DNA from: a virus
DNA: 64,000 nucleotides
Strand: one strand, 5' to 3'
Virus record (IMG/VR): IMGVR_UViG_2786546475_000019
Location: 974 to 64,973 of that record
The stretch's first letter is position 1. The number at the start of each line of letters is the position of its first letter. Shown here one piece after another: positions 8,409 to 42,991 of the stretch. Position numbers and translations under genes: made by a program. The notes under the pieces were generated by a model. That model made no database searches. It was given only the letters and a program-made list of their open reading frames with translations, and was not told the origin of the DNA.

Positions 8409-8430
8409 AACGCAAAACAAAAGAGAACAA

Positions 8431-14894: not shown

Positions 14895-16407
14895 AAACAC
14901 TTCCGACTCGTTCAACTTTGATTTGAATATTACCAAATGGTATGAAGCTTATTATGGCGGGTATCAATTCATTGATAAATATCTGTACCAACAATCAAGC
15001 GAAAAGACAACTGAATTTGAGATACGTAAAAAGATTGCGTACAACCCTCCAGTATTGCAAAACGAGGTAGATCGTATTTTAAGAGCCGTCCAAGAACGTT
15101 TGCACTTGGTCAAACGGCGTAACGGCTCTCGAACCTATCAACAAATGGTAGCAGGAGAGAACGGCGGAGTAGATTATTTTGAGACCAACATGAATTTGTT
15201 TATGGCGGATCAAGTTCTACTTCACTTACTGATAGGCGGCGGGTGTGGAATCTTTATTGATAATTACGGCCCCGAAGATTTAACGTTTGAAGGGAACACT
15301 CACCCGTTCCTTCGAGTAGTTCCTCGTTACAAAATCACGCAAATGGAATACGGAGCTAATCGACAATTTGATAAAGTTTGTTTTGAAAATTTCAAATTTG
15401 AACGAGATTCAGACGGTCAACTTTGGTACACAGTTTACGACACGGACCCCGAAAAAGAGAAAGAGATCGATACACAAGGCCAATTGGAACTAAGCCGTAT
15501 TCCTTTTGTGTGGATTGAAATGCCACGACCCTTGTTGCGAGATGCAGCTGATATGCAAATTGCTTTGTTGAACCAACACTCAACTGAGCTTGAGTTCGCT
15601 ACCAAGTACAACTTTCCAATTTATTACGAGTACACGTCTCCTCGCGGTGGCGGAGACGTGCGTGATAAAAATCGAGAAATTGAACTTACCAAAACAAAAG
15701 GACGTAAAGTTAAACAAGGTTCTGGCCCTCCAGGTTATGTTACCCCGCCAACTGAAAATTTGGACGCGTCCATGCGTAAGAGTGAGCAGATCACTCAATT
15801 GATAAAAGACACTATCAATTCGAACATGGAAGAAAATAAAGAGGATGGTCAAAGCGGCTTGTCCTCATTGGGTCGCTTAATGGAGCGAGCGGAAAATGAA
15901 GTAGCCACGCTTCTAGAAGAATATATCAATGAAGGCGGACAAGCAAGAGTTTGTTACCCAAAAGTGTTCACCCTTCAAACGGTTGAAGAACGAACAGCTG
16001 AAGCTGAACTGTTTGAAAAAATGAGCAATTGCGTACCATCCAAAACGTTTCGAATGGTAACGCATAAGCAAAAAGCAGAAACGCTACTTGGCCCTGTTCT
16101 AACTACCGAAGAACTTGATGTTATATTCAAAGAGATCGAAGAAGCTCCGGCTTCGTGTGTAAACCCTGAAATGCTTTTAAAGCTTCTAGAAAAAGGAGCT
16201 TTGACTACTCATTTAGTTAATGAAATTCTTGGGTATCCTGCTGACGAAGCAGATAAAGCTTTGGAGCAACTTGCTGACCGAATGGCCGTCACTGTGGTAG
16301 CTCAAAGCAAAGCTAAAGAAGTTCAAAGTGATAGTTTACCAGACGACGCTCGACAAGCTCAACGCGGCGAGCAAGATGTTCCTAATGATATTGGAGAGCC
16401 TACCTAA
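14881..16407 (+). CDS. Portal protein
   Basis: 508 aa immediately after the terminase, acidic C-terminal region, canonical position. Confidence 0.55.
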   Translation: MLSFRNTSDSFNFDLNITKWYEAYYGGYQFIDKYLYQQSSEKTTEFEIRKKIAYNPPVLQNEVDRILRAVQERLHLVKRRNGSRTYQQMVAGENGGVDYFETNMNLFMADQVLLHLLIGGGCGIFIDNYGPEDLTFEGNTHPFLRVVPRYKITQMEYGANRQFDKVCFENFKFERDSDGQLWYTVYDTDPEKEKEIDTQGQLELSRIPFVWIEMPRPLLRDAADMQIALLNQHSTELEFATKYNFPIYYEYTSPRGGGDVRDKNREIELTKTKGRKVKQGSGPPGYVTPPTENLDASMRKSEQITQLIKDTINSNMEENKEDGQSGLSSLGRLMERAENEVATLLEEYINEGGQARVCYPKVFTLQTVEERTAEAELFEKMSNCVPSKTFRMVTHKQKAETLLGPVLTTEELDVIFKEIEEAPASCVNPEMLLKLLEKGALTTHLVNEILGYPADEADKALEQLADRMAVTVVAQSKAKEVQSDSLPDDARQAQRGEQDVPNDIGEPT

Positions 16408-17757: not shown

Positions 17758-19122
17758 ATGGCTTCGCCTAACGATGCGTTGATTCCTGAGCTATGGGCCC
17801 AGGAAGCTATTAACTTGATGTGGGAAAATTTCCTTTTCGGGCAATTGTTCCACACCGAATTCAAAAACCAAATTGCTGTTGCTGGCGACGTGGTTAACAC
17901 CTCTCGACCTGTTCGGATGCGTGCTCACCGTAAGAACAGCGACATTCAAACTATCAATGACCAAACCGCACGTTCAACTAATATCAAAGTTGAACTGAAC
18001 CAGCAAATTTACGTTTCGTTCTTGCTGGGTTCACGGGACCGGTCTTTGAGTTTTGTTGACTTGACAAGCAAGTATCTTGTCGAAGCGATGCAAGCTCAAA
18101 TCCGAATGATCGATCGCTCGATTGCTGGACACATTGCATTGTTCTTGGCCAACGCAGTTGGTACTTCAGGAACTATCAGTGCGTCTAACGCTTACAACCA
18201 ACTCACGTTGGCTCGTAAGAAACTGAACGATTACAATGTTCCTGAGCCAAACCGTCGGTTTGTCTTTGGCAATCGTTCGGATATCGCGTTCTTGCAAGAT
18301 GATCGCTTTATCAATAGCGATTACAACGGCATGGGCGGTACAGCGGTTCGCGAAGCGTATCTTGGTCGAACTCTCGGCTTTGATATGTTCCGTTCGCCAA
18401 ACTTGCCTATGGCTGAGAACTGCCCTCAACAGTCGCCAACGACTGTTGACGGAGCGGCAGCAGCAGGAGCTACGACTATTGACGTAGCAACTGGTACAGC
18501 CCCAGCTGTGAACTCGTACATCGAGATCGCAGGGGAAGGTTCTCCAAACTTGGTCACGGGAGTTTCAACTGATACTCTCACCTTGAAGCGTCCTCTGCGT
18601 AACGCCGTTGCTGACGGTGCCGCAGTCAAGATTTTCTCTCAAGGTGCTGTGAATAACGCAGCAGGCCACGATGCTGGTGATAACTTTGACGCCAAGGCAA
18701 ACGGTTACGCTGCTAACTGGGCCGAGGACATTGCTGTTGACGGTAACGTCCCAGCAGTTGGTCAAATTATCTCGTTTGCTTCGCATGACGCCGAGTACGT
18801 TGTTGTGAATCTCGAAGGTAGCAACATTCTTTTGGATCGCCCATTGGAAGCTGCAATCGATGACAATGACACTGTTGCTTTGGCTGGTGACTTCGAATTG
18901 AACTTCGCGTTTAACCCGAAAGCTATCGGTATCATTTCCCGTCCATTGGCTGTGGAGATGGAAGGAACTGGCGTCCGTTCAGCAATCGCCGAAGGTTATG
19001 GCTTTGGTGTTCGCGTGGATATCGGTTTTGACGGGACCAAGCAAGCACAACGTGTGACCATCAGCTCGTTGCTCGGTCTCAAGCAGTTGGATGAAGAACG
19101 CGGAGTACCTCTCCTTGCGTAA
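17758..19122 (+). CDS. Major capsid protein (with a probable insertion domain)
   Basis: 454 aa, strong RBS (ggagatgaagt ATG), position after the scaffold, Ala/Gly-rich insertion. Confidence 0.55.
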   Translation: MASPNDALIPELWAQEAINLMWENFLFGQLFHTEFKNQIAVAGDVVNTSRPVRMRAHRKNSDIQTINDQTARSTNIKVELNQQIYVSFLLGSRDRSLSFVDLTSKYLVEAMQAQIRMIDRSIAGHIALFLANAVGTSGTISASNAYNQLTLARKKLNDYNVPEPNRRFVFGNRSDIAFLQDDRFINSDYNGMGGTAVREAYLGRTLGFDMFRSPNLPMAENCPQQSPTTVDGAAAAGATTIDVATGTAPAVNSYIEIAGEGSPNLVTGVSTDTLTLKRPLRNAVADGAAVKIFSQGAVNNAAGHDAGDNFDAKANGYAANWAEDIAVDGNVPAVGQIISFASHDAEYVVVNLEGSNILLDRPLEAAIDDNDTVALAGDFELNFAFNPKAIGIISRPLAVEMEGTGVRSAIAEGYGFGVRVDIGFDGTKQAQRVTISSLLGLKQLDEERGVPLLA

Positions 19123-21641: not shown

Positions 21642-24600
21642 ATGGCCAAGCAATACGATATTGATACCCAACCTGCGATTAAAAGTCTCGCTGATTTAAC
21701 ATCAATGGTAGGGAAGCTGACTAAAAAGTCAGAAACTTATAATGATAGGCAACGTACCGCGAACCGAGCACTTAAAACTGCTGGGGATCGCCTTGTTACG
21801 TTTAAAGATAATGTCAAGCACGCTGCTTCCGGTGTTCGATCTTTGAACACGGCTCTTGACAAAATGGACACAACCAATGATAATTTCAACAAATTAAATA
21901 CGGCTGCTGGTGTTTTAGGCCGAAGACTAGATAGCTTAGAGACTAAAGCCGGAACTACTATCATTCGGTTGGGGGAATTACGCACAGCCGCAGGTCGAGC
22001 AGCAGGGGCTTTGGAGCGTGAAAAGAAAATCATTGGAGAGTTAAACAGCTCTCTAAGTCAAATGAACCAACGCTTCAAGCGTATGGTTCAAATCTTTGAT
22101 GATAAGAACCAAAAGTTGAATCTGCAACAAAGGGCAATGCTGGCAGACGCTAGAGCCATGGGCCAAGGTACTAAGTCTGCTAACCTGCTCTCTCGTACTT
22201 TGCGACGATTGAGAGATATTGTCGGAACGTTCGCAGGATATGGAGCTTTGTTCCTTATCACTAACGAGCTACGTCAATCCATTGGTTCCGCAAAAGAATA
22301 CGCTAAAGCCATTTCCGAGATTAGAACAATCTCGGACCGAGCTGCAGTCTCCAGTCAAGAGTGGACCAATAAGCTTTTAGAACAGTCTAATGCGTATGGC
22401 TTTACGTTTCTGGATCAAGCCGAAGCTGCGTATCAATCTCTTTCGAATCAGGTCACCAACGCTGGTGATACTTTTGCTTTCTTGCGGTCAGAAGCTGCTT
22501 TGTCTATGGTAGCAGTTTCTTCGTTGGAAGCTGCAACTAACTCAACAACTGCTACATTGAACGCGTTTGGAGACTCGGCAGGAGCTGCTAGTCGCGTGAA
22601 CGCAATTCTGTTTAAGACGGTTGAAGAAGGTCGTATCCGCTTGGAAGACATGGCGAATACAATTGGTCGTGTTTCGATTCTATCATCCCAACTTAACATT
22701 AGCTTTACGGAACAACAAGCTGCTTTGACTCAACTAACAAAGCTTGGTGTACGGACCGAAGAAGCTATGACATTGTTGCGTAACGTCGAACTTAAATTGT
22801 TGAAGCCGTCGGAACGAATGTCTGAGCTGTTCAAAGAGTGGGGCTTTACCTCAGGTCAAGCAGCAGTTGAGACGTTAGGATTGGCTGGCGTCATGGAGAA
22901 GTTTGTCGAAACTGCTAAACAAAATGGCGACGTAGCCGCAGAGCTGGGTGATATTTTCAATCGCTTGAGGGCTATTGTCGGTGTCGCTGGTTTGACTCAA
23001 GCCTCATTAACTGAGGAAATGGAGAAGTTTGAGAACGCGTCGGAAAGTGCTTTAGGTGCTTTCTTGGAGCGAATTAACTCAATTGATACTAGAGCTAATC
23101 GCCAAATTCAACAGTTTAAGAATACGTTTGTTTCGGAGTTTGGGGCTCCTATTCTTAAAGTTCTTGTTGAGACCGCCGAAGGTATGGGCGGCATGGAAGC
23201 TGCAACAATTCAATTGATTCGCAACTTGAAACAGCTAGTGACAATTGGCGGAACTGTAGCCACGGCCCTTGGCGTCTTGGCCACAGGTCGTGGAGTTTAC
23301 GCCCAAGTTACGTACTGGACTAACCAGTACCGGATTGCCACTCTAGCAAATACAGCGGCTTTGTCGGCGGAACAAGTGGCATTAGTTCAAGCGTCAAGGG
23401 CTCGGATTGCCTACGCTTTGACTTCGCTAGGTGTGGCGGGGGGCGTAGCGTTAATTGCATATCAAATATATCAAGCCACTCAAGCTCACGAAGACTACGC
23501 GTCAAGTGTAAGACAAGCTGCTGCTGAGTTCCGTAACAACTTTGGACCGGACGGGCTTAAAGCTTATGAAACGCTTAATGTCGAAATCAACAACACTACC
23601 GAAGCAGCTCTAAAGCAAACACGAGCAATGCGTAGGGCCTTTGGAGAAAGTGCCGCCGCTATTACTCGCAACTTGAACGCGTTAGAAGCGGCAAATGATA
23701 GTACCATTAACGCACTAGACGAATCTATCTCCGCCTACGTTGATAAGATGGAGTCTAAGTTCCAGAAGATTCTTCGGGAAAGTGCCAAGATTTCAGCCAA
23801 GCTAGCTAATAATATTGCTCAAGGTACAGCGGCCACACAACAAGTTGATCTTAGCTTACGTGTGCGTCGACAAGTATCTAATATCAACCAAGGTGCTGAC
23901 CCTTTAATGGGGTACAAAAAGCTGTTCAAGCAGCTTGAGGCTGAGGCTTTTGCAGCTCTTGATAAAGGAGATAAACAACGAGCAGATAATCTGTTTGCAG
24001 AAGTTGACAAGCTAGTTTCTGAGTATCGCAAACGATACACTAATATTAAAGCTCCGACGCTCCCTATTCCAACTATTCCTGCGAACGCTACGCCGATGAT
24101 GCGTAGGCGATATCGAGGATACATTGAAAACATCAAAAAGCAAAATGCTGAGATTAAGAAAGCAACTGCTGATGATAAAGCGGAACTTAACCGAAAATTT
24201 GAAGAAGGTCAAATTAAGTTTTATCAACGACGTAATGATAAAATCAAAGAATACATTGAACTTCTTAAGAAACAAAAAGCTGCCGAGGATAAAGCTCGTG
24301 AAGTAATGACTCAAAAGTTTAAAACTTTTGAAAATATTTTCGAACAAGTTGATGAAGCTAAGACGGGAGACGAAGTTCGATCTCTTACTAATAAATTCAA
24401 AACAGCTTCCGCTGGTGTTCTGGACCCAACGGAACGTCTTAAGTTTATTCGGGACTTGAACCAGAAAGCCCTCGCTTTAGACGAGAAAGCAGAGATTGAG
24501 CGTAAACGAGTTCTGGTTGCACGGGCCAAAGAAACCCAAGAGGCGTACTTAAAGACTCGCGACGAATTGATAAAACGTCAAGAAGAAGCTCGACGTAAGC

Positions 24601-25241
24601 TCAATGAGTCCTTGACTATTAACTTAACAGACGGGGAGTTTGCAGATCGGTTTGCTAATAAAGATAAAGCGTTACAAACCATAATTAAAGACGCCCAAAA
24701 ACAAATTAGGCGATCCAAAGCTAGGTTAACTCCGGGTTGGCTTGTAAAGGAAGACAGCATTAGAGCGGAGAAGTTGACTCTGCGAGAAGCTGAACAGACT
24801 TTAAAAAGGGCTATGGCTCAACAAAAAACTCTTAAAGATCTTTATCGCCAAGTTAAGGACTTTAACCTCAAGCCTACTGATAAAAAAGCCGAAGCTTTGA
24901 TGGATACTTTAGGTAACCTTCCAGGTTTCGAAAAGTTTACTAATAAGATTGGGCAAGCAGCTGATGAAGTGAACCGGTTACGTAACCTTTCGCTCCAACC
25001 ATTTGATTTGAAAATTGACGCTGACGCCAGTTTGGAAACAATTCGAAAATTGCAGAAAAATATAGACATGTTGCGAGAAGGGTTGGAGTTGACACCAATT
25101 AATTTTGCTCCGCTTCAACAACCTACTACTCAAAACAACATTACGTTCAACGTATCTCCGGGCCAAGGACCAGATGCTTTGGTGGCGGACGTTACTGATA
25201 AAATTTACGATGCCTTTAGACGAGGATTGATAAACGTATGA
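21642..25241 (+). CDS. Tail tape measure protein (1199 aa)
   Basis: Very long, alpha-helical/coiled-coil, Ala/Leu/Lys/Glu-rich. Has a central hydrophobic stretch. Canonical position. Confidence 0.75.
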   Translation: MAKQYDIDTQPAIKSLADLTSMVGKLTKKSETYNDRQRTANRALKTAGDRLVTFKDNVKHAASGVRSLNTALDKMDTTNDNFNKLNTAAGVLGRRLDSLETKAGTTIIRLGELRTAAGRAAGALEREKKIIGELNSSLSQMNQRFKRMVQIFDDKNQKLNLQQRAMLADARAMGQGTKSANLLSRTLRRLRDIVGTFAGYGALFLITNELRQSIGSAKEYAKAISEIRTISDRAAVSSQEWTNKLLEQSNAYGFTFLDQAEAAYQSLSNQVTNAGDTFAFLRSEAALSMVAVSSLEAATNSTTATLNAFGDSAGAASRVNAILFKTVEEGRIRLEDMANTIGRVSILSSQLNISFTEQQAALTQLTKLGVRTEEAMTLLRNVELKLLKPSERMSELFKEWGFTSGQAAVETLGLAGVMEKFVETAKQNGDVAAELGDIFNRLRAIVGVAGLTQASLTEEMEKFENASESALGAFLERINSIDTRANRQIQQFKNTFVSEFGAPILKVLVETAEGMGGMEAATIQLIRNLKQLVTIGGTVATALGVLATGRGVYAQVTYWTNQYRIATLANTAALSAEQVALVQASRARIAYALTSLGVAGGVALIAYQIYQATQAHEDYASSVRQAAAEFRNNFGPDGLKAYETLNVEINNTTEAALKQTRAMRRAFGESAAAITRNLNALEAANDSTINALDESISAYVDKMESKFQKILRESAKISAKLANNIAQGTAATQQVDLSLRVRRQVSNINQGADPLMGYKKLFKQLEAEAFAALDKGDKQRADNLFAEVDKLVSEYRKRYTNIKAPTLPIPTIPANATPMMRRRYRGYIENIKKQNAEIKKATADDKAELNRKFEEGQIKFYQRRNDKIKEYIELLKKQKAAEDKAREVMTQKFKTFENIFEQVDEAKTGDEVRSLTNKFKTASAGVLDPTERLKFIRDLNQKALALDEKAEIERKRVLVARAKETQEAYLKTRDELIKRQEEARRKLNESLTINLTDGEFADRFANKDKALQTIIKDAQKQIRRSKARLTPGWLVKEDSIRAEKLTLREAEQTLKRAMAQQKTLKDLYRQVKDFNLKPTDKKAEALMDTLGNLPGFEKFTNKIGQAADEVNRLRNLSLQPFDLKIDADASLETIRKLQKNIDMLREGLELTPINFAPLQQPTTQNNITFNVSPGQGPDALVADVTDKIYDAFRRGLINV

Positions 25242-25921: not shown

Positions 25922-26231
25922 TATTGATGGAATTGACGTTCCGATGCCAAAACGAGGGAACTCGTTTGAAGATACAACGCAAATTATCATCCAGCAAACT
26001 GAGGATGATAGTGTCCACACGCAAATCAAAGATGGTGAAATTATTCGCCAGATGCAGTGTGAAGTTCCAAATGATGTTTACGACCAAATAAAAACTAAGA
26101 GAGGCACAGAAGTAGCTTTAATCTTTGACGACTATTCGGAAAATGTCACAATGATGTTTGACGCATCCCCTAACTTCCAACGCACTCTTTGGAATGTGAG
26201 TTTTACTTTCTATGAGAAATATAGCAGTTAA
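25914..26231 (+). CDS. Minor tail protein
   Basis: Position. Confidence 0.35.
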   Translation: MFSIDGIDVPMPKRGNSFEDTTQIIIQQTEDDSVHTQIKDGEIIRQMQCEVPNDVYDQIKTKRGTEVALIFDDYSENVTMMFDASPNFQRTLWNVSFTFYEKYSS

Positions 26232-28899
26232 CCAATACGGCCATTCTTCAAAGATTGAAATTGATTTGAATGGCATGTTATACGAACCTCTTAAAATTGG
26301 TACACTGTCTCAAACCAGTGTAAACGCCACCCGTGATGTTGCAACTATTGAAGTTGTACTTCACGGTACTATTGATATTGCTTTTGAAGCTCCGTGTGCT
26401 GTAAAGTATAACGGAGAAATTTTATTTAAGGGCATTGTTGATACTCCGATTCGGCAAGAACGAGGCGTAACCAAATTCCGAGTTATTCAACAAGTGGAAG
26501 CAGAGGAAGTTGGCTTTGCTCCAGAAGAAAGTGAACTTGACTTGATAAATGAGTTCACTCCGTGGCCTATGGGTTTCGGAAGTCCGGTATACGCTAAGAC
26601 CGTCAAGGTCCGTAAACAACCTACAACCAGCACTGAGACTAACATCTGTTTGATAAATCTTGAGCTAGTTGAACGACGCGACCAGCTTCTAGACGCAATA
26701 AATCGTGGGTTATTTATCATTAACTATTGGCGAACTGCTGCGGATAAGCAAGTCAATCCTAATGCTGAAACAACATTAAACCAATACATTGCAGTTCTCA
26801 CTACAGGAGAAGCTCAAAATATCCTCTGGGCTGAAGCTCGTAATTTGCTTCAACAACGTCAAGATGATCTGAACAAACATCCAAACGACATTGATACGCT
26901 AACTGAATTTTACAATCAGCAAGATGAAGTAGCTTCTTTAAGTGATACTATTAACGCTTTGCTTCAAAGCAAAGTAACGCTAGAGGACCATATACAGTTC
27001 CTACGCTTCATGGCTCGTATGAAGCGATATGCAGTTGATAACATGCTTAAGATTTGGAAGCAGCTTCGCATATGGACTTACGAGTATTTTGAGCTTGCGT
27101 TACAAATCTGTGAACAAGAACGGTGTGCTCAACCTGTTCATTACGTTGAAGACTCTAGGGACTTTCCTCAGAACACTGATGTTGATGTTCGGATCAATGA
27201 CTTCATTTTTACTGTCCAGTTCGACGGTAAAAAGATGACAGGTATCAGTGGCCCGAACCCTGAACAAGAGAACCTAACAGTTAGCCCACATCGAGAGGAC
27301 GATGCTCCGTGTTCCGAGTACGAGTTTTTCAACGGTGTCAACGTATTTTACACTCCCGCTATCGGCCTAGAAAATACTTGGTGTTTGGTCAAAGACACCA
27401 GCGACAATTATCACGTTATCTACGTCGAGAAGCAAGAAGATGATAAGTGCACGTTTCGAGTTGTTCCATGGTCCGGGGAGCGTTTTAAACAAGCACAGTC
27501 TCAATCTCTTGAAGCGGCAACTTTACAGTTAGCCGACGCTCCAATTTATGATATTTTAAGAGACGGAGTAAACTCGTCTCTTTACCAAAGTCAAGCGTTT
27601 AATCCTAATACATGGCTTGACCGTAAATCAGCTGACTACATTCAAGCTATCGCTCCGTTGTCAAATCCCGGACCAGACGTTCGTCGAAACATTGCTATGC
27701 TGGTCCACTTAAAGAAGTTTGATAACCTTAACGGTTTAGTGATTCCGGACCCTCAGCCTAGGGACATTTACACTATCATTGGGGAAGATATTGCTAGCAT
27801 TGAGCAAGTAGCCTCCCGTCCGTTACCTTCTTGGTATGACTATAATTTGATACCAGAAGAACTTCCTGAATTAGAAAACTGGGAAGCTCCTCCCGGCACC
27901 GAAGTCACAATGGACACTTGTGAAATTTACGCCATTAACACAATTCAATCTCAAGTTCATGGAGTTTATGCTTATTTCACGGATCGAGATAAGAAAAGTT
28001 TACGGGCCCTTCCTGAAAGTTATTATGAGATTGAGACAGAGGACTTAGGCACGTTACGTCCAACTCTTTTAAAGCTTCGGCGACCTTTGCCAAGTAATTG
28101 GGATAAAGAGATTTACGCCACCTACACGTCCAAAGTTGGACCAAACGTGGCAGATATCTTACGATACATTATCAATAAGTACACTGATAAAACACCAAAT
28201 TCGTCTTTTGATACTGTCAAAGAGTACCTCGTAAACTACCCTGCTAACTTTGTAGTGTATGATCGTCCTGACGCTCTTTCGCTGATAAATCGTATTTGTC
28301 GCGAAGCTCGCTGTGCGGTCACGTTAAGAGACGACCAGTTCCACTTGACTTACCTTTCCCGAGTTCCAGGCTCTGACGGCATTGGATTCACTTCTAGCAC
28401 TGTGTTGAAGAAATCACGCTCAGTAAGAGTTTCTAAAGTTGAAGATATTATCACTCGGTACAATGTTACGTGGACGCCGAACGGACTGCCCATTGAACCT
28501 GAGAAGCTTGTCTTGCGACATAATGTTGGCAAGTACGGGTTAAAAGATAATGACTACGATTTCCTGATTTATGACCAGTATGACTTGGTGCATAAAACAA
28601 TTAACTTCTGGTTGATTCGCAACTCAGAAATTTATCAATTTTGGAAAGGCAATTTAACAATTGGTGGCATCAACTATCAATTGCTTGATGAGCTGTCTAA
28701 TGGCGTTGGAACGGGTAGAGTACAGTCTTGGGAATACGCTCATGATACTCGGACCGTTACTGTTGAAGTAAACACTGGAATTCCTTACAACGAAGACGCG
28801 GTAAATCAATATTACTGGCCGTCTCAAATTGATGCTGAACTTATCTGGCCAAATGAAGCTGACACCACTGGAGTAACAGGAACAATCGAATGCCCGTAG
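26212..28899 (+). CDS. Tail tip / host-specificity (J-like) protein, 895 aa
   Basis: Large ORF after the small tail genes. Confidence 0.5.
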   Translation: MRNIAVNQYGHSSKIEIDLNGMLYEPLKIGTLSQTSVNATRDVATIEVVLHGTIDIAFEAPCAVKYNGEILFKGIVDTPIRQERGVTKFRVIQQVEAEEVGFAPEESELDLINEFTPWPMGFGSPVYAKTVKVRKQPTTSTETNICLINLELVERRDQLLDAINRGLFIINYWRTAADKQVNPNAETTLNQYIAVLTTGEAQNILWAEARNLLQQRQDDLNKHPNDIDTLTEFYNQQDEVASLSDTINALLQSKVTLEDHIQFLRFMARMKRYAVDNMLKIWKQLRIWTYEYFELALQICEQERCAQPVHYVEDSRDFPQNTDVDVRINDFIFTVQFDGKKMTGISGPNPEQENLTVSPHREDDAPCSEYEFFNGVNVFYTPAIGLENTWCLVKDTSDNYHVIYVEKQEDDKCTFRVVPWSGERFKQAQSQSLEAATLQLADAPIYDILRDGVNSSLYQSQAFNPNTWLDRKSADYIQAIAPLSNPGPDVRRNIAMLVHLKKFDNLNGLVIPDPQPRDIYTIIGEDIASIEQVASRPLPSWYDYNLIPEELPELENWEAPPGTEVTMDTCEIYAINTIQSQVHGVYAYFTDRDKKSLRALPESYYEIETEDLGTLRPTLLKLRRPLPSNWDKEIYATYTSKVGPNVADILRYIINKYTDKTPNSSFDTVKEYLVNYPANFVVYDRPDALSLINRICREARCAVTLRDDQFHLTYLSRVPGSDGIGFTSSTVLKKSRSVRVSKVEDIITRYNVTWTPNGLPIEPEKLVLRHNVGKYGLKDNDYDFLIYDQYDLVHKTINFWLIRNSEIYQFWKGNLTIGGINYQLLDELSNGVGTGRVQSWEYAHDTRTVTVEVNTGIPYNEDAVNQYYWPSQIDAELIWPNEADTTGVTGTIECP

Positions 28900-29705
28900 A
28901 AGACCGTAAACCTAGTGACCTGTCTGATGAATTTCCTGAACGAATTTTTCCAAATTTAAAACCGCCTGGAACTATTCGAACTGAACGAATAGGTCTCCCA
29001 AAACAAGACGCGTTCTACAACGACACTACCGAAGATCCGTACACAGATGATAGGTTGTTGTCGGAAGTTGGGGTCGTTGTTAAAAAGAACAGTAATGCCG
29101 TTTACGTAGTCCATACTCAAAATGGCGTTCAACGTACTTCGTTAGCTTTGGACCCAAATCGAGAATATCAAATTGGACGGGAAGTAGTTTTACAGCCGCC
29201 CCGATTAGAAGGGGATGACTGGCTTATCATTGGTGAGACTCGTCAACGAGAGAGTGAGTATGTAATTTGGAAAGCTCGCCATAATGGAACGTCCTATGCT
29301 TTCCAAGCTGACCCAATGAAAGAATCCCATTTGGAGCTAGACGGAGCTGACTGGAAACGATTTGCTACGGTCCTTGGCTCAACAATGACGCTACCTCCAG
29401 GTTGGTATGATATTTCAATCAACGTTAAGAGCCTAGGCAGCTCTCTGCTAGTTGTTGATATGACGCAAGTTGGTGGAGATCAAGGAAGCGACTCAGCCCC
29501 AGCTTCATGGACATATGACGTGGAACACAATGGCACGGAGCTTGCTACAGATTACGACCCTGTGAGCGGTAACATTTATAAACGTCCATCTATTGGCCAA
29601 CTAAGTGTAGCAACCAAGGGTATCTGGGCAGCAGGAGCTATTGTTTGGTGTAACGAAGCTTTGGTTGGTGGCGACTGTGACGATCTTGTAGGATGGGAAG
29701 GGTAA
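28890..29705 (+). CDS. Tail-associated hypothetical protein
   Basis: 271 aa, coupled to the J-like gene. Confidence 0.35.
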   Translation: MPVEDRKPSDLSDEFPERIFPNLKPPGTIRTERIGLPKQDAFYNDTTEDPYTDDRLLSEVGVVVKKNSNAVYVVHTQNGVQRTSLALDPNREYQIGREVVLQPPRLEGDDWLIIGETRQRESEYVIWKARHNGTSYAFQADPMKESHLELDGADWKRFATVLGSTMTLPPGWYDISINVKSLGSSLLVVDMTQVGGDQGSDSAPASWTYDVEHNGTELATDYDPVSGNIYKRPSIGQLSVATKGIWAAGAIVWCNEALVGGDCDDLVGWEG

Positions 29706-30379
29706 TGAAGAAGTCAATCGTATTGGTAGCAGTTGGCCCCATGTTCCAATTCTATCAACAGTATACTAAACGCCGCTTTGAAGCTTACGCTGATAAAATA
29801 GGAGCTGAGTTAATAGTCCTAACTGGCATCACTCAAAAGTGGTGGGGTTTAGAGAAATACCGAGTGTCTAAACTTGAACTAACTGGCCCAACAGTTTACA
29901 TTGATGTAGACGTTTTGATTCAAAGTTGGGCTAGAGACATTTTTGAACTTTATCAACCGGGGAAAGTTGGGATTTATGACGACTACCCCGAAGCTAGAGA
30001 AGCTCAACCGGGAAACGACTGGGCTCCCCGTGAATGGTCGGAAATGATGCAGTACCAACACATCGATGACCCTTTTAGGGAGCGACTTTTAAATAGCGGG
30101 GTAGTGCTTTTTGATAAAGAGACCCAACATATTTGGAACCCGCCGCCTTTTCGATTTAAGCCTAGGCATTGTGCGGAACAGTTCTGGATTGATTATCAAG
30201 TCGGTGACAACTGGTTCCCGTTGCCTAGGGAATTCAACCATCAACATTGGACTAAAAGCTTTGCTACCTCGTTTCATAAAAGCGATTTTGTGCACTTGTC
30301 CGCCTGCAAGAATCGAGAATATTGGATCGCTAAATACGAGCACCTTTTAGATAGGAGCCAACCTTATGACAACAATTGA
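29693..30379 (+). CDS. Putative nucleotide-sugar glycosyltransferase (GT-A fold, DXD motif)
   Basis: IVLVAVGPMFQ ... TVYIDVDVLI (DXD) pattern. Confidence 0.4.
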   Translation: MGRVMKKSIVLVAVGPMFQFYQQYTKRRFEAYADKIGAELIVLTGITQKWWGLEKYRVSKLELTGPTVYIDVDVLIQSWARDIFELYQPGKVGIYDDYPEAREAQPGNDWAPREWSEMMQYQHIDDPFRERLLNSGVVLFDKETQHIWNPPPFRFKPRHCAEQFWIDYQVGDNWFPLPREFNHQHWTKSFATSFHKSDFVHLSACKNREYWIAKYEHLLDRSQPYDNN

Positions 30380-30530: not shown

Positions 30531-31748
30531 ATGCCTAAATTTACGCTTCTTGATTTTGCGGAAACAGAGACTCAAAGAAAATACGTAAAAGAGTATTTAG
30601 CTGTAAGGTCAATGCAAAAAGTAGCTGATACTTTTTCAGTCAGTAGGCCCGCAGTTTCCAAGTGTTTGAAAAGAGTTCGAGCGTTAGCTATTGTTCAAGG
30701 ATGGGACCCGGACCGTGGGTTTGATAAACCTGTAGCTACTAATCAAATAGCTCACGGAATTAGTAGCTATTACAATTCCGAAGGAGTTAAAACTCAAGAA
30801 TGGGTCAAGTCTTCTCTGAATCTTGATAAACTCAAAGATTTGATGAACGCCCTAGTGGGAGAGTTTAAGAAAGATATTAAACCGATTCGTCCTACAAAGA
30901 TCCTGAAACGAGCTAAATTTTCAGAAGACGCTATTACGTTTTATTTAAAAGGAGATGCTCACTTAGGACTACTTTCCTCCAAAGAGCTTACAGGAGTAGA
31001 AAACCACACTCTGGATTTAGGGATTCAGGTTAATAAAGCAGCTACCGCCAATTTGATAGATCGAGCAGCTCCAACTAAAATTGGAGTTTTAGTGAATTTA
31101 GGAGACGTCCTACACGCTAATGATAGCTCTGGCTTGACTCCTCGGAACCGCCATAAGCTGGACACTCATCTTAATTTTACAGAAGTTGCTCGCGGTCTTA
31201 GAAAATTGCTCTTGTGGGAAGTGGCTCAAGCTTTAAGTAAACACAAAGAAGTTTGGGTAGTTAACGTGAAAGGCAATCATGACCCGGACCCTGCAATCTG
31301 GATCAACGAAATTCTTGAAACAAAATATGAGAATGAACCAAGAGTTAAAATTATTCCCAACGCTCAACCTATCATTCCTTTAGCTTTTGGGGACTCTGCT
31401 GTTTTCTTAAGGCACGGAGACAAAGCCCCTCACTCTAGGGCGTATGAAGTTATTACGTCACATGAGGAGTATTCAGAAGTTTTCTGTAACGCTCGCCCTG
31501 CAAACACCTACGTGTGGTCCGGACATATACATCATGAAACCAAGAAAGAAATTGGTAAAACTAAGATTGAAACGTTCCCAAGCTTAGCTCCAATTGATTT
31601 ACACCACGCTCAATCGTTGTACGGAGCTTCCCGTTCAATGGTAAGTATTGAGATACATGAAGAATACGGAGAGATTGCTAGACGAACTTGTAACCATCGT
31701 ATGGCTAAAGAGTTAATTCGAACTTACGCAATTACTTCGGGTATTTAA
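30531..31748 (+). CDS. HTH domain fused to a calcineurin-like metallophosphoesterase with Mre11/SbcD-like motifs
   Basis: N-terminal HTH-like (SRPAVSKCLKRVRA). GDAHLG (motif I), GDVLHAND (II), KGNHDPD (III), GHIHHE (V). Confidence 0.6.
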   Translation: MPKFTLLDFAETETQRKYVKEYLAVRSMQKVADTFSVSRPAVSKCLKRVRALAIVQGWDPDRGFDKPVATNQIAHGISSYYNSEGVKTQEWVKSSLNLDKLKDLMNALVGEFKKDIKPIRPTKILKRAKFSEDAITFYLKGDAHLGLLSSKELTGVENHTLDLGIQVNKAATANLIDRAAPTKIGVLVNLGDVLHANDSSGLTPRNRHKLDTHLNFTEVARGLRKLLLWEVAQALSKHKEVWVVNVKGNHDPDPAIWINEILETKYENEPRVKIIPNAQPIIPLAFGDSAVFLRHGDKAPHSRAYEVITSHEEYSEVFCNARPANTYVWSGHIHHETKKEIGKTKIETFPSLAPIDLHHAQSLYGASRSMVSIEIHEEYGEIARRTCNHRMAKELIRTYAITSGI

Positions 31749-32255
31749 ATGATACTTCAATGGCTTTCTGATCTGCTTCAAATGTTCACGGACCTCGTTC
31801 CTCGGCCTTTGATTGTGCGGGCTGACGAGGAGCTAGTATCATTTGTCTTTGGTAAATACACTAGGAAGCTTGGGCCAGGTTGGTACATTTCTTGGCCAGC
31901 TTTTGAAGAATTAGAAGTAGTTCAAGTCAAAAGAGATTTTGTTTCTCGCCAACAGAAATTTTGTAAAAACGGCATCACTTATGCTTATTCTTGGCAAGTG
32001 CCTTACGAAATTACTGATGCCTTAAAGATGGTAGTTAACACGTACGACTACCAAGAGACAATTGCTGATTTTGTAGAAGTGTCTTTAGCGGAGTGTTGGC
32101 AAAACTTTGGACCTGCCGAAATTTGTAACCTTGAAACACAAGATAAAGTGTTTGATAAAGTTCGCGGTATTTTGGAAGAGTACGGGGTTGAAATTAAAGC
32201 GTTTCGTATCACCTCGCACTCCGAAGTAATTGCTTTATCCATTTGGGAGAAATAA
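31749..32255 (+). CDS. SPFH/band-7-like domain protein (short, no obvious TM)
   Basis: VRADEELVSFVFGKYTRKLGPGWYISWPAFEELEVVQVK matches the SPFH N-terminal core pattern (V.RFGK...L.PGLHF.IPF...V). Confidence 0.45.
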   Translation: MILQWLSDLLQMFTDLVPRPLIVRADEELVSFVFGKYTRKLGPGWYISWPAFEELEVVQVKRDFVSRQQKFCKNGITYAYSWQVPYEITDALKMVVNTYDYQETIADFVEVSLAECWQNFGPAEICNLETQDKVFDKVRGILEEYGVEIKAFRITSHSEVIALSIWEK

Positions 32256-33403
32256 TGCCTTTTCTATTTCGTAACGGCCGCTTAGTTTATCAAGACGGCA
32301 AAGCAGTAGTTAGCGACGATACTACAGAGTGCGTCTGTTGTGATCAAATTGGAGAAGATCCTTGTACGTGTGCCGGGCTCCCTGATGCTATTTACGTCTA
32401 CGCTTACGACCGTTGGGCTTTGCAATATGATAGCTTTAGACCCATGTGGACGTGGGATGAATTCTTGTTTGAGAGGCAAACTGATACAACGTGGGAGAGC
32501 GTGGAGCTTGAAACTCTTAGGTGTGACGGAAGTAACTACTTAACGTGGGACGGCGTTGGATTGTTGCAAGGCCCGGGAAATAGTAATCTTGTTTGTGGGT
32601 GTGATCTTTTTGCAAGTCGTCAACCTTATTATGGGTATTATCGAATAGAGGAGTGCCACCCTGATTTCCAATCTTTTAACGCAACAAATCCTACTAGACC
32701 AATTCCTTGTCCTATTGAGAATCAAAATGATTTCGGGTATTCTATCAGTCGCACACTTAGCGGCTTATTCTTGGGATTTGAAGAATCGTATCTAGGGGGA
32801 GGGACTGGATACGATGGCGGCGAGAGCGGAGCCGGTAAACAATACGGCTACGGTCCATGGCAACGAACCTTGGGAAATGTTCAACGACCTGCGTTCCGGG
32901 ACCCATGTTTAGATTATCCTCCGTGGTTAGGAGCTACAGCTTACGGACCTTCGGCCTATGGAGCAGGGAGCATTGATTTTGACGAGTGTTACTCTCTTGA
33001 GTATTTAGAAGGTCCTTCTGAGACGTACCCTCAAGATTGGCAATATACTTGGGCTTTTGGTTGGAGTCAAGCGGAAGCTCCTAACATTGCCAAGTTTCTA
33101 AATTTGATAATTAAAGGCGATGGTACGCTATCTGTTATCTTCCACCGAGGCGTGCCTAATACAACTCACGCGTACGGCAAACCAATTATGTCGCCCCTGA
33201 ATCCTTTAGAAATTTGGGGAGGTACTGCTACAGGATACGACTTCAATGATAGCTCTCCACAAACTTTTGATATTGAAGTAAAGCGACATGGAATATATGT
33301 CACGCCTTTACCGATGACATACACTTTTACGATTCTTCAACAGAATCCGACAATTGATACTCCAGGCCCAACATCGATTTACACAGGGAGTTTTGAAGCA
33401 TGA
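32255..33403 (+). CDS. Hypothetical protein (Gly/Tyr/Trp-rich). ATG start at 32255 preferred over the TTG at 32243
   Basis: gggaga RBS upstream of the ATG. Confidence 0.4.
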   Translation: MPFLFRNGRLVYQDGKAVVSDDTTECVCCDQIGEDPCTCAGLPDAIYVYAYDRWALQYDSFRPMWTWDEFLFERQTDTTWESVELETLRCDGSNYLTWDGVGLLQGPGNSNLVCGCDLFASRQPYYGYYRIEECHPDFQSFNATNPTRPIPCPIENQNDFGYSISRTLSGLFLGFEESYLGGGTGYDGGESGAGKQYGYGPWQRTLGNVQRPAFRDPCLDYPPWLGATAYGPSAYGAGSIDFDECYSLEYLEGPSETYPQDWQYTWAFGWSQAEAPNIAKFLNLIIKGDGTLSVIFHRGVPNTTHAYGKPIMSPLNPLEIWGGTATGYDFNDSSPQTFDIEVKRHGIYVTPLPMTYTFTILQQNPTIDTPGPTSIYTGSFEA

Positions 33404-33612
33404 GCCAAAGCCAACTTGAAGCTTACGCCAGACAACGTAAGTTTAGGCCCAAGATGGAAAATGTTCAAATTTGTGAACAGTGCGACCACTTAATACGTGA
33501 TCGCTACTGTTCCAAATTTGGCAAGTGTCCTGACGCTCAAAAAGATTTCTTTAAAGCCCTTGAACGAAGTAAATGTCCTTTAGAGAAATTTCCGTCGCAG
33601 CTCAGCGAATAG
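33400..33612 (+). CDS. Small Cys-rich protein (CEQCDH...CSKFGKCPD)
   Basis: ORF of 70 aa, last gene of the + strand block. Confidence 0.3.
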   Translation: MSQSQLEAYARQRKFRPKMENVQICEQCDHLIRDRYCSKFGKCPDAQKDFFKALERSKCPLEKFPSQLSE

Positions 33613-33996
33613 AATTCTAACTTGCTTAGGAGTTAACTCTAACAAACGCCCGATTTCCGAATACGTATAGTATTGAAGTCGTAAACTTACAGCCCATCGC
33701 TCCTCGACAGTTAGCCTATCTAGGTCAAACTGATCGAGGAATTCTTCTGCACTTCTTGATAATTCTTCAATATCGCCTAACGCTTCGGTATCATTGTTTG
33801 TTTGCATTTTCTTTCGACGACGGTAAGCGTCAATACCTCTCGACCGTAGTAAGGTTCTTAAGTGTGAGATGAATTTCTTTTCCTCAACTAGCTCATGATA
33901 ATTCTCCCACGCTTGTAAAAATTCCAAAGATAGCGAGCAGTCAAATTTAGTTTCAAACTCTCGCAACAAGTAAACATAATCGTCGATCCTTCGCAT
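33580..33996 (-). CDS. Sigma-factor region-4-like HTH protein (possible ECF-type sigma or anti-sigma-related)
   Basis: C-terminal YSEIGRLLELTPKQVRILFAELRRKF resembles a sigma-70 region 4 HTH. Confidence 0.35.
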   Translation of the reverse strand: MRRIDDYVYLLREFETKFDCSLSLEFLQAWENYHELVEEKKFISHLRTLLRSRGIDAYRRRKKMQTNNDTEALGDIEELSRSAEEFLDQFDLDRLTVEERWAVSLRLQYYTYSEIGRLLELTPKQVRILFAELRRKFL

Positions 33997-34005
33997 GATA
34001 GTCTC

Positions 34006-34593
34006 CTACACTGCTGTTAAGTCTAGCCAACACAATTTTTTGTAAATTTTAGCAGTCAACAACGTATCATAAAGAGCGTCATGCAAACTAGCTTGATCGT
34101 AAGGAATGTCCAAAGCTTTGGCTAATGAGCTAAGCTTCACATCTGGGAACAATGGCTTATGGCCCCGAAGCTCACATCTATCATTGATAAAGTGAGCATA
34201 ATCCATGGTGTCTCTACAGAACCCGTGGAAGTGGAGTCCATAAGTTGCCGACCCATATAGTTTCTCCAACATAGGCCTATCAAAATCTTTGTAGTTGTGT
34301 CCAACTGGCAAGATTCTAGACCATTCCGCTGAGAAGTTTAACCGTTCAACCCAGTCTTCAAACGCATCCATTGCTTGGTCCTGAGTCAATCCATGGATGC
34401 TGGCTTTAGCTGCGTAGGGCGAAGTGATATTTACTTCTGGTTTTATCAACCACTGAACCGCTAGATGTTCAACAGGATCAAGATTATCATTAAGAGGAAT
34501 CATAGCAACTTGCCAGACCTCATCTAGCTCTACATCCGTTCCTGTCGTCTCAGTATCAATGCAGACTAACAAACTTCCTTTATGGTTTAACAT
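34006..34593 (-). CDS. DEDD-family 3'-5' exonuclease (DnaQ-like)
   Basis: Exo I motif LLVCIDTETTG. YDTL in the C-terminal region is consistent with Exo III. Confidence 0.6.
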   Translation of the reverse strand: MLNHKGSLLVCIDTETTGTDVELDEVWQVAMIPLNDNLDPVEHLAVQWLIKPEVNITSPYAAKASIHGLTQDQAMDAFEDWVERLNFSAEWSRILPVGHNYKDFDRPMLEKLYGSATYGLHFHGFCRDTMDYAHFINDRCELRGHKPLFPDVKLSSLAKALDIPYDQASLHDALYDTLLTAKIYKKLCWLDLTAV

Positions 34594-35230
34594 TTTCTAG
34601 GCCCCCAGAATTAAGACCTTTGATAGACTTAGCCAGTTTTAGGGTCTTCGCAATCAAATCCTGAATGCTTCCATCATTTTCCAAAATGAAAGTTGCACGC
34701 TCCTTGAACCGTCCAACATCTTCGGAGACGTGCTCAGGTTTAGGAGGAATCTTGCCCGGACGTTCAAGATAAATTGTAACATCGAACAAATCAAACTCGT
34801 TATCAAACCTAACGTCGTCAGCCAAGAATGAATTTGACCCCATGAAATTTAAAACGCCTCGGACGTGAGCGTCCTTATTAAGCGTTCGAACAATCCCCGT
34901 CCCAAAATATTGCATCAACATTCGAGGAGTCTGCATGATAGGATGGTCCCAATGAGCCACTCGTTCAATTCCTCGAAGCGAAACTCCGCTACGTGTTTGG
35001 AAATGGAGACAAAACTTACGAATAACTCTGGGCCCGATTACTCGTTCATTGATGCGAATGCCTTTGAAGAAACTTTCAAGCCAGAAACATCGCTCCAAAC
35101 CAAAAGTCAAAGACAACGCACTTTTCAAATGTTTAGCCAACGGATGATAGTAAAGCTCTAGCTCTTGGGTAAGAACTTGAGCCACGAGACTTTTTCCACT
35201 TCCTTTGTAGCCAATGATACCTACTCTCAT
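34580..35230 (-). CDS. P-loop nucleotide/nucleoside-monophosphate kinase
   Basis: Walker A GIIGYKGSGKS at the N-terminus. Confidence 0.5.
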   Translation of the reverse strand: MRVGIIGYKGSGKSLVAQVLTQELELYYHPLAKHLKSALSLTFGLERCFWLESFFKGIRINERVIGPRVIRKFCLHFQTRSGVSLRGIERVAHWDHPIMQTPRMLMQYFGTGIVRTLNKDAHVRGVLNFMGSNSFLADDVRFDNEFDLFDVTIYLERPGKIPPKPEHVSEDVGRFKERATFILENDGSIQDLIAKTLKLAKSIKGLNSGGLENVKP

Positions 35231-35655: not shown

Positions 35656-36347
35656 TTGCTTCTCCGGTTAGCTTGATAATTTGCGATTGAAAACCCACGA
35701 GGAGTCATACTACGAATCTCTTTTACGTTAGGGTGTGATCCTCCAATTTTACCATATTGCCGGGAGTATCCATCTTCTGGTATCACTTTCTTTTTAGGCG
35801 GCATCTTAAACCCGCCACCTGTCCACAGGTATGTTTCCTTCGGGTACGCGTCCCGTGGAGCAATATATTGTGGCCAAGTAGGGTGTTCATCATCTTCTGG
35901 TAAGTACCCACCGTATTCGTACGGGTGAAACTTGTAATCTGGTTTACGCCACAAAGATGATAGTCTCGATTTAGGATTCTCAATGAACCACGGACATTGC
36001 AACTCTGTGAAAACGCGACGACACCAGATAGCGTAACGTGCAGCTTTGTATTGGAAGTCTGGATCGTGGCCTTCTTTCGAGGGCCAGTGAATAATTCCAG
36101 AGACTGCCAAGTCGGTACAAACAGGGAACGCCGCCCCAAATACCACTTCCTTTCCTTGAAAAGTATCAATGATACGCCTAACTTGTTCCAGGTCGTGAAG
36201 GTCAGCCTTGTGGAAATGAATCACGTTGTCCCCGATCCGTTGTCGATGATCTACGTGCTTTATATCGTAAGCATGACATTCGTAACCTGCTCTGGCCCAA
36301 GGATGAAGTAACACCCCGGAGTGATCGTACAAGCTTAAAACTATCAT
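35652..36347 (-). CDS. Short cytosine-C5-methyltransferase-like protein (divergent, 231 aa)
   Basis: LSLYDHSGVLLHPWARAGYECHAYDI (motif I-like), FPVC (PC-motif-like), FIENP (ENV-like). Too short for a canonical DNA C5-MTase. Confidence 0.3.
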   Translation of the reverse strand: MIVLSLYDHSGVLLHPWARAGYECHAYDIKHVDHRQRIGDNVIHFHKADLHDLEQVRRIIDTFQGKEVVFGAAFPVCTDLAVSGIIHWPSKEGHDPDFQYKAARYAIWCRRVFTELQCPWFIENPKSRLSSLWRKPDYKFHPYEYGGYLPEDDEHPTWPQYIAPRDAYPKETYLWTGGGFKMPPKKKVIPEDGYSRQYGKIGGSHPNVKEIRSMTPRGFSIANYQANRRSK

Positions 36348-37168
36348 ACGGCCACGTCACCTTTGATAGCCGGATGGGGATTGTAACCTTCAAGAATAAT
36401 ATCTTCCCACCGAAGTGATAAAATATTCTCCAAAGGAGATAACACCGGATCAGCTTGCCTTGCAAAACGAAGCTTTGGAGCTTCTTTAGCTGGGCGTCTC
36501 AACTGTAGGTTGACTTGATCTACGTGGTTGTTGTAGATATGAGCGTCGCCAAACGTATGGTAATACGTCTTGGGTTTAAGGTCCGTGGCCCACGCCAAAA
36601 TGTACATAAGCAACACGTAGGATGCAATGTTAAACGGAACGCCAAGAAACATATCAGCAGAGCGTTGATACATTTTCAAGGACAGTTCTCCATTTGATAC
36701 GTAGCATTGGAAAAACATATGGCACGGCGGTAAGGCCGCATCTCCACCTGGAAGGTGATGTTTTGGGTGCCAAGCAGAGCAAATAACTCGTCGGCTGTTT
36801 GGAGACTCAGTTAGGCAATCAAGCACGTACTGAATCTGATCTACGCCGTTGAAGTCTCTCCACATCTTCCCATACACCGGACCAAGCTCTCCGGCAGCGT
36901 CTGCCCATTCGTCCCAGATATGAACATTCAGGTCTTGTAACGATTTGATATTTGTCTCTCCTCGAAGAAACCACATCAGTTCCTCAAATACCAACCGCAA
37001 AGGTACAAACTTTGTAGTGAGCAATGGGAAGTGACTACTGATTGTTCCGTAAATTTGAGGGCCGAATAGACGAATTGTTCCGGTCCCTGTTCTATCATCA
37101 TGTGTTTCTCCGTGGAGCAAAACACTTTTAAGTAATGACAGATACTGTTGTTCTAACGCTGAATACAT
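36344..37168 (-). CDS. thyA: Thymidylate synthase (ThyA family)
   Basis: DRTGTGT, ALPPCHMFFQCYV catalytic Cys motif, FLGVPFNIASY (Asn for dUMP), DAHIY. Aligns along its length with E. coli ThyA by eye. Confidence 0.85.
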   Translation of the reverse strand: MYSALEQQYLSLLKSVLLHGETHDDRTGTGTIRLFGPQIYGTISSHFPLLTTKFVPLRLVFEELMWFLRGETNIKSLQDLNVHIWDEWADAAGELGPVYGKMWRDFNGVDQIQYVLDCLTESPNSRRVICSAWHPKHHLPGGDAALPPCHMFFQCYVSNGELSLKMYQRSADMFLGVPFNIASYVLLMYILAWATDLKPKTYYHTFGDAHIYNNHVDQVNLQLRRPAKEAPKLRFARQADPVLSPLENILSLRWEDIILEGYNPHPAIKGDVAV

Positions 37169-42082: not shown

Positions 42083-42991
42083 TCATAACATCAACTCCCG
42101 CTCGAAACCAGCTGCATTTTCGTGCCCGCCACCATTGTAGAACTCGGCCACGGTTCTTGCTTTAATGTAACACTCTGCCGTAGACCGGATGCTGTACCGG
42201 TATTTCTTGGCAACGCCATCGTAGAACCAAGACATTGCTGGTTTACCAGTAAGGTTGCAAATCTCATGAAGCAAGTCACTGATAATATCTCCGTGAGTGT
42301 TGTTAAGACACGGAAGGAATCCAAATGGAGTCACGACTCCTGTGAGAATAGCCCCGTCCTCACCTACTGTTCTTTTTAGAATCCCTTTGATTTTATGGGC
42401 CAAATACTCATTGATAACTTTACCTTTATCGATAAGCTCAGAAATATCAAGCTCGGCCCATACTCCAAAATTCCAGTCCGTGGCCCGAAGGGCACGGTCC
42501 ACGTTAATGGTTGCGGGGTATTTCCAATTCCAAAGATCACGATCTTCGGTATATTGAACGAGAGCTTCAACATTCCCGCTCCCCATGGAACAGTTCATAA
42601 ACTCCCAAGTAAGTCTAGCCCCGGACTTCTCCATATTCAACTTGATAAACAACTTATGTTTCTGGATGATAGTTTCTTGCCCACTCTCTTGGATATCGTA
42701 ACCTGTCGCTTCTTTAGCTTGAGTTATCAATTTCTCAACCGCAGATTTATGGTGATCTAAGACCACAACCTGATCAAAATTCCGAGCGTATTGTTCCAGC
42801 ACTTCCAAGTCATAGCTGAAATCAACAATATACAGCTGGTTGCCTTGTGCTTCTGGAGCAGGTTGCCCGTAATGCACTGGAAGGTATTCAGTGAAATCTT
42901 CCCCATGTTTCATCCAAAGAACATAGGCTGAGCAGAATCCATCCAAACAACTGGCATGGTAAATGATAGTTACGTCTTGAGTGTTAGGCAT
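42083..42991 (-). CDS. DHH-DHHA1 family phosphoesterase (NrnA/RecJ-like)
   Basis: VVVLDHHKS (DHH motif), C-terminal GGGHENAAG (DHHA1). Confidence 0.65.
   Translation of the reverse strand: MPNTQDVTIIYHASCLDGFCSAYVLWMKHGEDFTEYLPVHYGQPAPEAQGNQLYIVDFSYDLEVLEQYARNFDQVVVLDHHKSAVEKLITQAKEATGYDIQESGQETIIQKHKLFIKLNMEKSGARLTWEFMNCSMGSGNVEALVQYTEDRDLWNWKYPATINVDRALRATDWNFGVWAELDISELIDKGKVINEYLAHKIKGILKRTVGEDGAILTGVVTPFGFLPCLNNTHGDIISDLLHEICNLTGKPAMSWFYDGVAKKYRYSIRSTAECYIKARTVAEFYNGGGHENAAGFERELML

Follow-up and report, generated by a model that had tools for sequence, protein, structure and literature searches.

A helix-turn-helix-fused metallophosphoesterase of the phage family PHROG 704 as a candidate Rad50-independent nuclease

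What might a phage do with a metallophosphoesterase that carries its own helix-turn-helix (HTH) domain and has no Rad50/SbcC partner? This question is raised by a complete gene in a 64,000-nucleotide stretch of a tailed-phage genome (IMG/VR record IMGVR_UViG_2786546475_000019, positions 974 to 64,973; the whole stretch is hereafter called the window), which a first-pass annotation, made from the sequence alone, had described as an Mre11/SbcD-type enzyme with an unusual N-terminal extension. We assign its 405-residue product, as a new and divergent member, to PHROG 704, a catalogued but experimentally uncharacterised phage family, and suggest, with a probability of about one half, that it is a phosphodiesterase of the nuclease branch that is independent of Rad50 and tethered to DNA by its own HTH. 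The gene and its parts are as follows.

30531..31748 (+), complete HTH-fused metallophosphoesterase gene, ATG start, 405 residues plus stop codon, PHROG 704 member
30531..30701 (+), residues 1-57, basic three/four-helix HTH of the sigma-70 region 4 / LuxR-GerE type
30702..30821 (+), residues 58-97, beta-hairpin module (strands 72-81 and 87-96), with W91 invariant and P60, S78, G85 and K93 near-invariant
30822..30920 (+), residues 98-130, long helix (98-115) followed by a lower-confidence linker to the catalytic domain
30921..31694 (+), residues 131-388, calcineurin-like metallophosphoesterase catalytic domain
30951..30968 (+), residues 141-146, motif I GDAHLG, metal ligands D142 and H144
31101..31124 (+), residues 191-198, motif II GDVLHAND, bridging ligand D192, H195 invariant
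31272..31283 (+), residues 248-251, motif III GNHD, ligand N249, catalytic His H250
31410..31421 (+), residues 294-297, motif IV RHGD, ligand H295
31521..31538 (+), residues 331-336, motif V GHIHHE, ligands H332 and H334, H335 nearly invariant
31695..31745 (+), residues 389-405, poorly conserved C-terminal helix, neither a capping nor a Rad50-binding domain

The open reading frame (ORF), the motifs DAHLG, GDVLHAND, GNHD and GHIHHE and the N-terminal HTH extension, all proposed in the first-pass annotation, were confirmed, and motif IV, RHGD, can be added to its list. An AlphaFold2 model of the protein (predicted local distance difference test, pLDDT, 92.4; predicted template modelling score, pTM, 0.77) resolves five parts, namely the HTH, the beta-hairpin, the helix with its linker, the metallophosphoesterase domain and a variable terminal helix, and the N-terminal domain folds as a three-helix HTH, recognition helix included, of the sigma-70 region 4 / LuxR type. 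In an alignment of 85 homologues with 25-39% identity to the query, W91, D142, H144, G191, D192, H195, T203, G248, N249, H250, R271, H295, G331 and H334 are invariant, a set that includes, besides all ligands of the binuclear centre, both the motif II His and the catalytic one in motif III. The highest conservation in the whole protein falls on the beta-hairpin (residues 58-97), for which a structural match in the PDB was not found.

The protein matches the profile of PHROG 704 ('DNA repair exonuclease') along its full length (E 6.4e-60, 204 bits, residues 18-391 against positions 12-388 of 390). Pfam returns two weak signals only, a borderline YlxM-type HTH (residues 12-52) and a sub-threshold Metallophos_2 match, and the query misses the gathering threshold of Metallophos/Metallophos_2 (18.5 bits against a cut-off of 27); among the homologues, 23 of 85 match Metallophos_2 and 18 of 85 match Metallophos at E <= 0.01. 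However, since all five motifs (DxH / GD / GNH[DE] / H / GHxH) are present and the predicted fold is the expected beta-alpha-beta-alpha-beta sandwich, we regard membership of the calcineurin-like metallophosphoesterase superfamily as settled by the model and motifs despite the low score, and PHROG 704-type sequences as too divergent for the Pfam models. The four-part architecture (HTH, W-containing hairpin, helix and metallophosphoesterase) and the same invariant residues are shared with family members from cultured phages, such as Klebsiella phage JD001 gp38 (YP_007392859.1), Escherichia phage Gluttony gp33 (YP_009291450.1), Escherichia phage tonnikala gp8 (QHR71279.1, 'putative phosphoesterase') and Vibrio phage VP-1 AWY10117.1 ('oxidoreductase'), to which identity is only 23-30%. 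Position also differs: the gene lies here after tail genes and before an SPFH gene, but in other phages at the end of replication/recombination operons or next to lysis/terminase genes.

Among 50,697 deposited phage genomes, tblastn detected relatives in 1,961 records, none of them reaching 60% identity, with carriers including T1-like Drexlerviridae, Jerseyvirus, Dhillonvirus, Jedunavirus and Vibrio Ackermannviridae as well as Campylobacter, Rhizobium and Rhodobacter phages; a nucleotide-level search of the gene against deposited phages gave no match, and relatives are seen at the protein level only. Approximately 4% of sequenced phages carry a member, among them therapeutic phages of the T1-like, Jersey-like and Klebsiella groups. 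When 1.84 billion cluster representatives were searched exhaustively with a HMMER profile, 7,451 matched at E <= 1e-3, of which 3,800 reached E <= 1e-30, and nearly all of the best 150 are 375-410 residues long and matched along their full length. Considering that these matches are numerous, full-length and uniform in size, the HTH-phosphoesterase architecture is fixed and common, and the earlier view that an HTH-targeted nuclease/phosphoesterase is unusual does not survive such counts in phage records and clusters. No functional study of the family was found in the literature, and its members carry conflicting annotations ('DNA repair exonuclease', 'phosphoesterase', 'oxidoreductase', 'DNA polymerase II small subunit', 'winged HTH protein' and 'hypothetical').

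To which branch of the superfamily does the enzyme belong? The first-pass annotation had leaned towards Mre11/SbcD, had seen no Rad50/SbcC partner, and had proposed a structure prediction and a fold comparison, setting the lambda NinI/PPP clade against a nuclease assignment. In this comparison, PolD DP1 (structural-neighbour score 16.0) is nearest, followed by T. maritima Mre11 at 15.2, S. aureus SbcD at 14.7, MJ0936 at 14.0, P. furiosus Mre11 at 13.9, LpxH at 13.5, YfcE at 12.9, GpdQ at 12.4, Rv0805 at 12.2 and the PPP protein phosphatases at 8.2-8.8; Foldseek also ranked PolD DP1 first, with Mre11 in the leading group. When the profile was run against all PDB sequences, it found T. maritima Mre11/SbcD (E 0.0018) through the DxHLG...GDxxHxxN region, and the sole other metallophosphoesterase was the P. 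putida 'Nuclease MPE' (E 0.33). In the hidden Markov model alignment, 'sDwHLG...GDLLHsrN' of T. maritima Mre11 stands opposite the motif I-II stretch of the PHROG 704 family, and H195 of motif II (GDVLH) pairs with the His of its 'GDLLH'. The nuclease-type motifs of Mre11/SbcD (the motif II His in GDxxH, and GNHD) are present in the query, and the PPP pattern (GDxxDRG, GNHE and closest fold neighbours among PPPs) is not what it displays. The structural comparison thus does not put the protein into the lambda NinI/PPP clade, the outcome that the first-pass annotation had named as a refutation.

The nuclease leaning and the missing partner were thus borne out, whereas the Mre11/SbcD-type label holds for motifs and fold neighbours but not for membership of Mre11/SbcD proper. 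Compared with T. maritima Mre11 (3qg5), S. aureus SbcD (7dog) and P. furiosus Mre11 (3dsd), only approximately 190 core residues align; those enzymes have a capping domain and Rad50-binding helices, both of which are absent from the query because only about 70 residues follow motif V, whereas the N-terminal HTH is a feature of the query that Mre11 and SbcD lack. The curated SbcD/Mre11 models of Pfam and NCBIfam gave no match (NCBIfam gives a weak YlxM HTH and PdeM at E 0.042 only). No ABC, SMC or AAA_23 match was detected in any large ORF of the window, outside which approximately 8 kb of the source contig lie, no long coiled-coil ORF with a Walker-A motif was found in the window, and none of the related loci examined has a Rad50/SbcC neighbour. 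Because the capping and Rad50-binding domains, a curated-model match and a Rad50/SbcC candidate are all lacking, the query should not be filed as Mre11/SbcD proper. The first-ranked neighbour, the archaeal PolD small subunit DP1 (a proofreading 3'-5' exonuclease; 5ihe, 8ppt), is 11-13% identical to the query, the N-terminal part of whose model has a two-stranded hairpin only. No DP2-like polymerase partner was seen among the large window ORFs scanned, nor any polymerase in the regions examined in carrier phages such as the T1-like tonnikala.

Gene neighbourhoods were examined at 80 IMG/VR loci of relatives, found with a 12-sequence alignment. At 44 of the 80, a NinG/Rap junction endonuclease (phmmer E down to 1e-36) is encoded on the same strand 250-750 nt upstream, in the recurrent order NinG/Rap, an ORF of about 80 residues, the HTH-phosphoesterase and a DUF3310-like ORF (L009-L087, e.g., L062 4209-6382), and among the annotated neighbours in the 12 dereplicated loci NinG/Rap and NinB/Orf occur most often; no NinB, NinG or DUF3310 homologues were found in the window. 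The gene closes a helicase / VRR-NUC / Dam operon right before holin and endolysin in tonnikala, follows a block of RecE-like PDDEXK, helicase and methylase genes at another locus (L093), closes a primase operon ahead of the terminase genes in JD001, adjoins a primase gene in VP-1, lies between the lysis genes and TerS in Gluttony, and forms part of a small opposite-strand island within the tail module in Jerseyvirus.

Architecture, intact active site, structural neighbours, family distribution and gene contexts are shown by the data above; from them we infer a DNA substrate, a metal and a biological role. The protein would be a catalytically competent two-metal phosphodiesterase, probably with Mn2+, of the calcineurin-like nuclease branch, acting without a Rad50/SbcC ATPase. 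The N-terminal sigma-region-4-like HTH, possibly together with the conserved beta-hairpin, would tether it to DNA, and its exo- and/or endonucleolytic activity would process either phage replication/recombination intermediates or host DNA. A Rad50-independent nuclease with its own tether is suggested by the intact and selected active site, the nuclease-type neighbours and the presence of the HTH on essentially every member, and a role in phage replication/recombination by the association with Rap, Orf, helicases and primases. However, the lean towards the nuclease branch, although real, has a small margin over other branches, which weighs against this reading.

A phosphodiesterase might also act on small molecules (cyclic mono-, di- or oligonucleotide immune signals, diadenosine tetraphosphate or alarmones) in an anti-defence or metabolic role, with the HTH serving autoregulation or localisation. 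We consider this unlikely, since a DNA-binding-type HTH that is fixed on essentially all of more than 7,000 clusters is hard to square with a soluble nucleotide hydrolase, the nearest neighbours in both sequence and structure are nucleases, the most frequent neighbouring genes are recombination genes, and no match to PADLOC or anti-defence models was obtained. It is quite unlikely, on our estimate, that the HTH and the W-hairpin go beyond a tether and direct a self-sufficient Mre11/DP1-like nuclease to particular sites on DNA or to RNA polymerase; if they did, the protein could be a single-chain equivalent, by analogy, of the T5 A1/A2 pair that destroys the host chromosome, or alternatively a nuclease coupled to the early-to-late switch.

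The recurrent gene order bears on two further explanations, because NinG, a small ORF and the HTH-phosphoesterase mirror the lambda order NinG-NinH-NinI-Q, and the site-directed nuclease coupled to the early-to-late switch would occupy this NinI/Q slot as well. The protein could be primarily a transcription factor for that switch, whose HTH binds promoter DNA or RNA polymerase while the phosphoesterase serves as a sensor or an accessory activity: the HTH is similar to region 4 of sigma, which binds both the -35 element and the beta-flap of RNA polymerase, and the gene is often directly upstream of late genes (holin/endolysin in tonnikala, TerS/TerL in Gluttony, near TerS in JD001). Nevertheless, we find it very doubtful, given that the invariance of the catalytic residues throughout the family points to selection for an enzymatic activity, that the gene in the window comes after the late (tail) genes rather than before them, and that promoter- or terminator-like signals near it are no more frequent than in shuffled sequence and no repeated HTH operator was found there beyond chance, the only repeats being short, imperfect and present in two copies. 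Lambda NinI itself is a PPP family protein phosphatase of the same superfamily, and many relatives sit downstream of NinG as NinI does in lambda, which would suit a protein Ser/Thr/Tyr phosphatase analogous to NinI; yet the slot is filled in lambda by a PPP-type enzyme and at PHROG 704 loci by a nuclease-type enzyme from another branch of the superfamily, and such a phosphatase seems highly improbable. The tethered, Rad50-independent nuclease remains our preferred reading.

Other genes locate the phosphoesterase within the phage genome.

13215-14894, gpA-type large terminase
14881-16407, portal
17758-19122, P22-like coat protein
21642-25241, tape measure protein
31749..32255 (+), SPFH/Band_7 gene, 168 residues (Pfam E 2.8e-14), first base directly after the phosphoesterase stop codon

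The 150-nt gap upstream of the phosphoesterase gene is mostly occupied by a 53-residue ORF, so that the gene may be no more than a continuation of the late operon. The SPFH gene may be co-translated with it in this phage, but its membership in the same unit is uncertain because the pairing is not conserved across PHROG 704. A relative with 37% identity (P0003) has a Band_7-like gene (L005 7209-7751) downstream with a 4-nt overlap, whereas a relative with 39% identity (P0002) has no SPFH gene there, and similarity between the SPFH proteins of the window and of P0003 is not detectable by BLASTP. A conserved partner gene was rejected: across the 80 loci, the usual downstream gene is a DUF3310-like ORF of 73-85 residues, SPFH genes follow only in the window and in L005, and elsewhere a holin gene, TerS or nothing is found. 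The arrangement may be specific to a lineage in which a nuclease-like enzyme is paired with an SPFH protein as membrane scaffold.

A minus-strand replication and nucleotide-metabolism module begins at about 33996. At its end, convergent to the phosphoesterase operon, lies a gene for a sigma-factor-like protein of 138 residues (33580-33996, minus strand; Sigma70_r4_2 E 6e-4; phrog_1740 'RNA polymerase sigma factor' E 5e-6). Its nucleotide-metabolism block, also on the minus strand, encodes a DnaQ-like exonuclease (34006-34593), a deoxynucleoside monophosphate kinase (34580-35230), a thymidylate synthase (36344-37168) and a DHH phosphoesterase (42083-42991), and could serve remodelling of the deoxynucleoside triphosphate pool or a modified base. 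Towards the right end of the window are a DUF5906 primase-helicase-like gene (55980-58592, minus strand, 870 residues), a ParB-like gene (ParB_N and HTH_ParB; 59360-60403, plus strand) and an SNF2-family helicase gene (61415-63412, plus strand). Large ORFs without a Pfam or PHROG match are located at 856-2217, 3586-5217, 5208-7058, 8320-9531, 26212-28899, 28890-29705, 29693-30379 and 32243-33403; among them are three at the left end (453, 543 and 616 residues), one of 895 residues after the tape measure gene, and one of 386 residues that is rich in Cys, Trp and Tyr and is followed by a Cys-rich ORF of 70 residues (33400-33612). An identical protein is deposited in NCBI under a marine Tara metagenome-assembled genome labelled 'Acidobacteria bacterium' (locus CL489_06180; contig of at most 72 kb), yet the contig is plainly that of a tailed phage, implying either a phage contig mis-binned into this genome or an unrecognised prophage.

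The value of these observations lies in the PHROG 704 family, with its fixed HTH-nuclease fusion in approximately 4% of phage genomes, rather than in this ordinary copy. If it is indeed an HTH-guided, Rad50-independent nuclease, thousands of annotations would be corrected, and a host-DNA-degradation or end-processing activity of the carrier phages could be identified. If the enzyme were instead site-directed, it would represent a widespread and previously unrecognised mechanism of host takeover or recombination initiation in T1-like, Jersey-like and many marine siphophages. The function of the family is a timely question because some bacterial defences sense genome degradation induced by phage (10.1101/2025.11.05.686725).

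Several phage metallophosphoesterases invite comparison. As homologues of the query, lambda NinI (probability 0.6% in direct profile comparison) and T5 A1 (hhalign probability 1.3%, 28 columns around GNHD only; PHROG 1745, not 704) were rejected, and Bxb1 gp47 / A10ZJ24 gp48 show superfamily-level likeness only (hhalign probability 1.9%). Because their relation to PHROG 704 is at superfamily level only, T5 A1 and A10ZJ24 gp48 are treated as analogues and not as evidence of orthology. Damage to host genomic DNA has been reported for A10ZJ24 gp48, a metallophosphoesterase of a cluster A mycobacteriophage (PMC12287305). A10ZJ24 gp48 and Bxb1 gp47 are likewise stand-alone enzymes with all five motifs, encoded in the replication module, but they have 255 residues and neither the N-terminal HTH nor the hairpin. 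In the RefSeq record of Bxb1 (L095 5876-6788), the label 'site-specific recombination directionality factor RDF' sits on gp46, of 46 residues. We take the published Bxb1 RDF to be the adjacent metallophosphoesterase gp47, and the label on gp46 is possibly an annotation slip. T5 A1 is also a stand-alone phage metallophosphoesterase, described as similar to double-strand-break-repair and proofreading nucleases; it is the product of a pre-early gene, has 556 residues and is mostly confined to Demerecviridae. It works with the DNA-binding HTH protein A2, and genetically the degradation of host DNA requires A1; the A1/A2 pair may be regarded, by analogy, as a possible functional counterpart of the HTH-phosphoesterase fusion.
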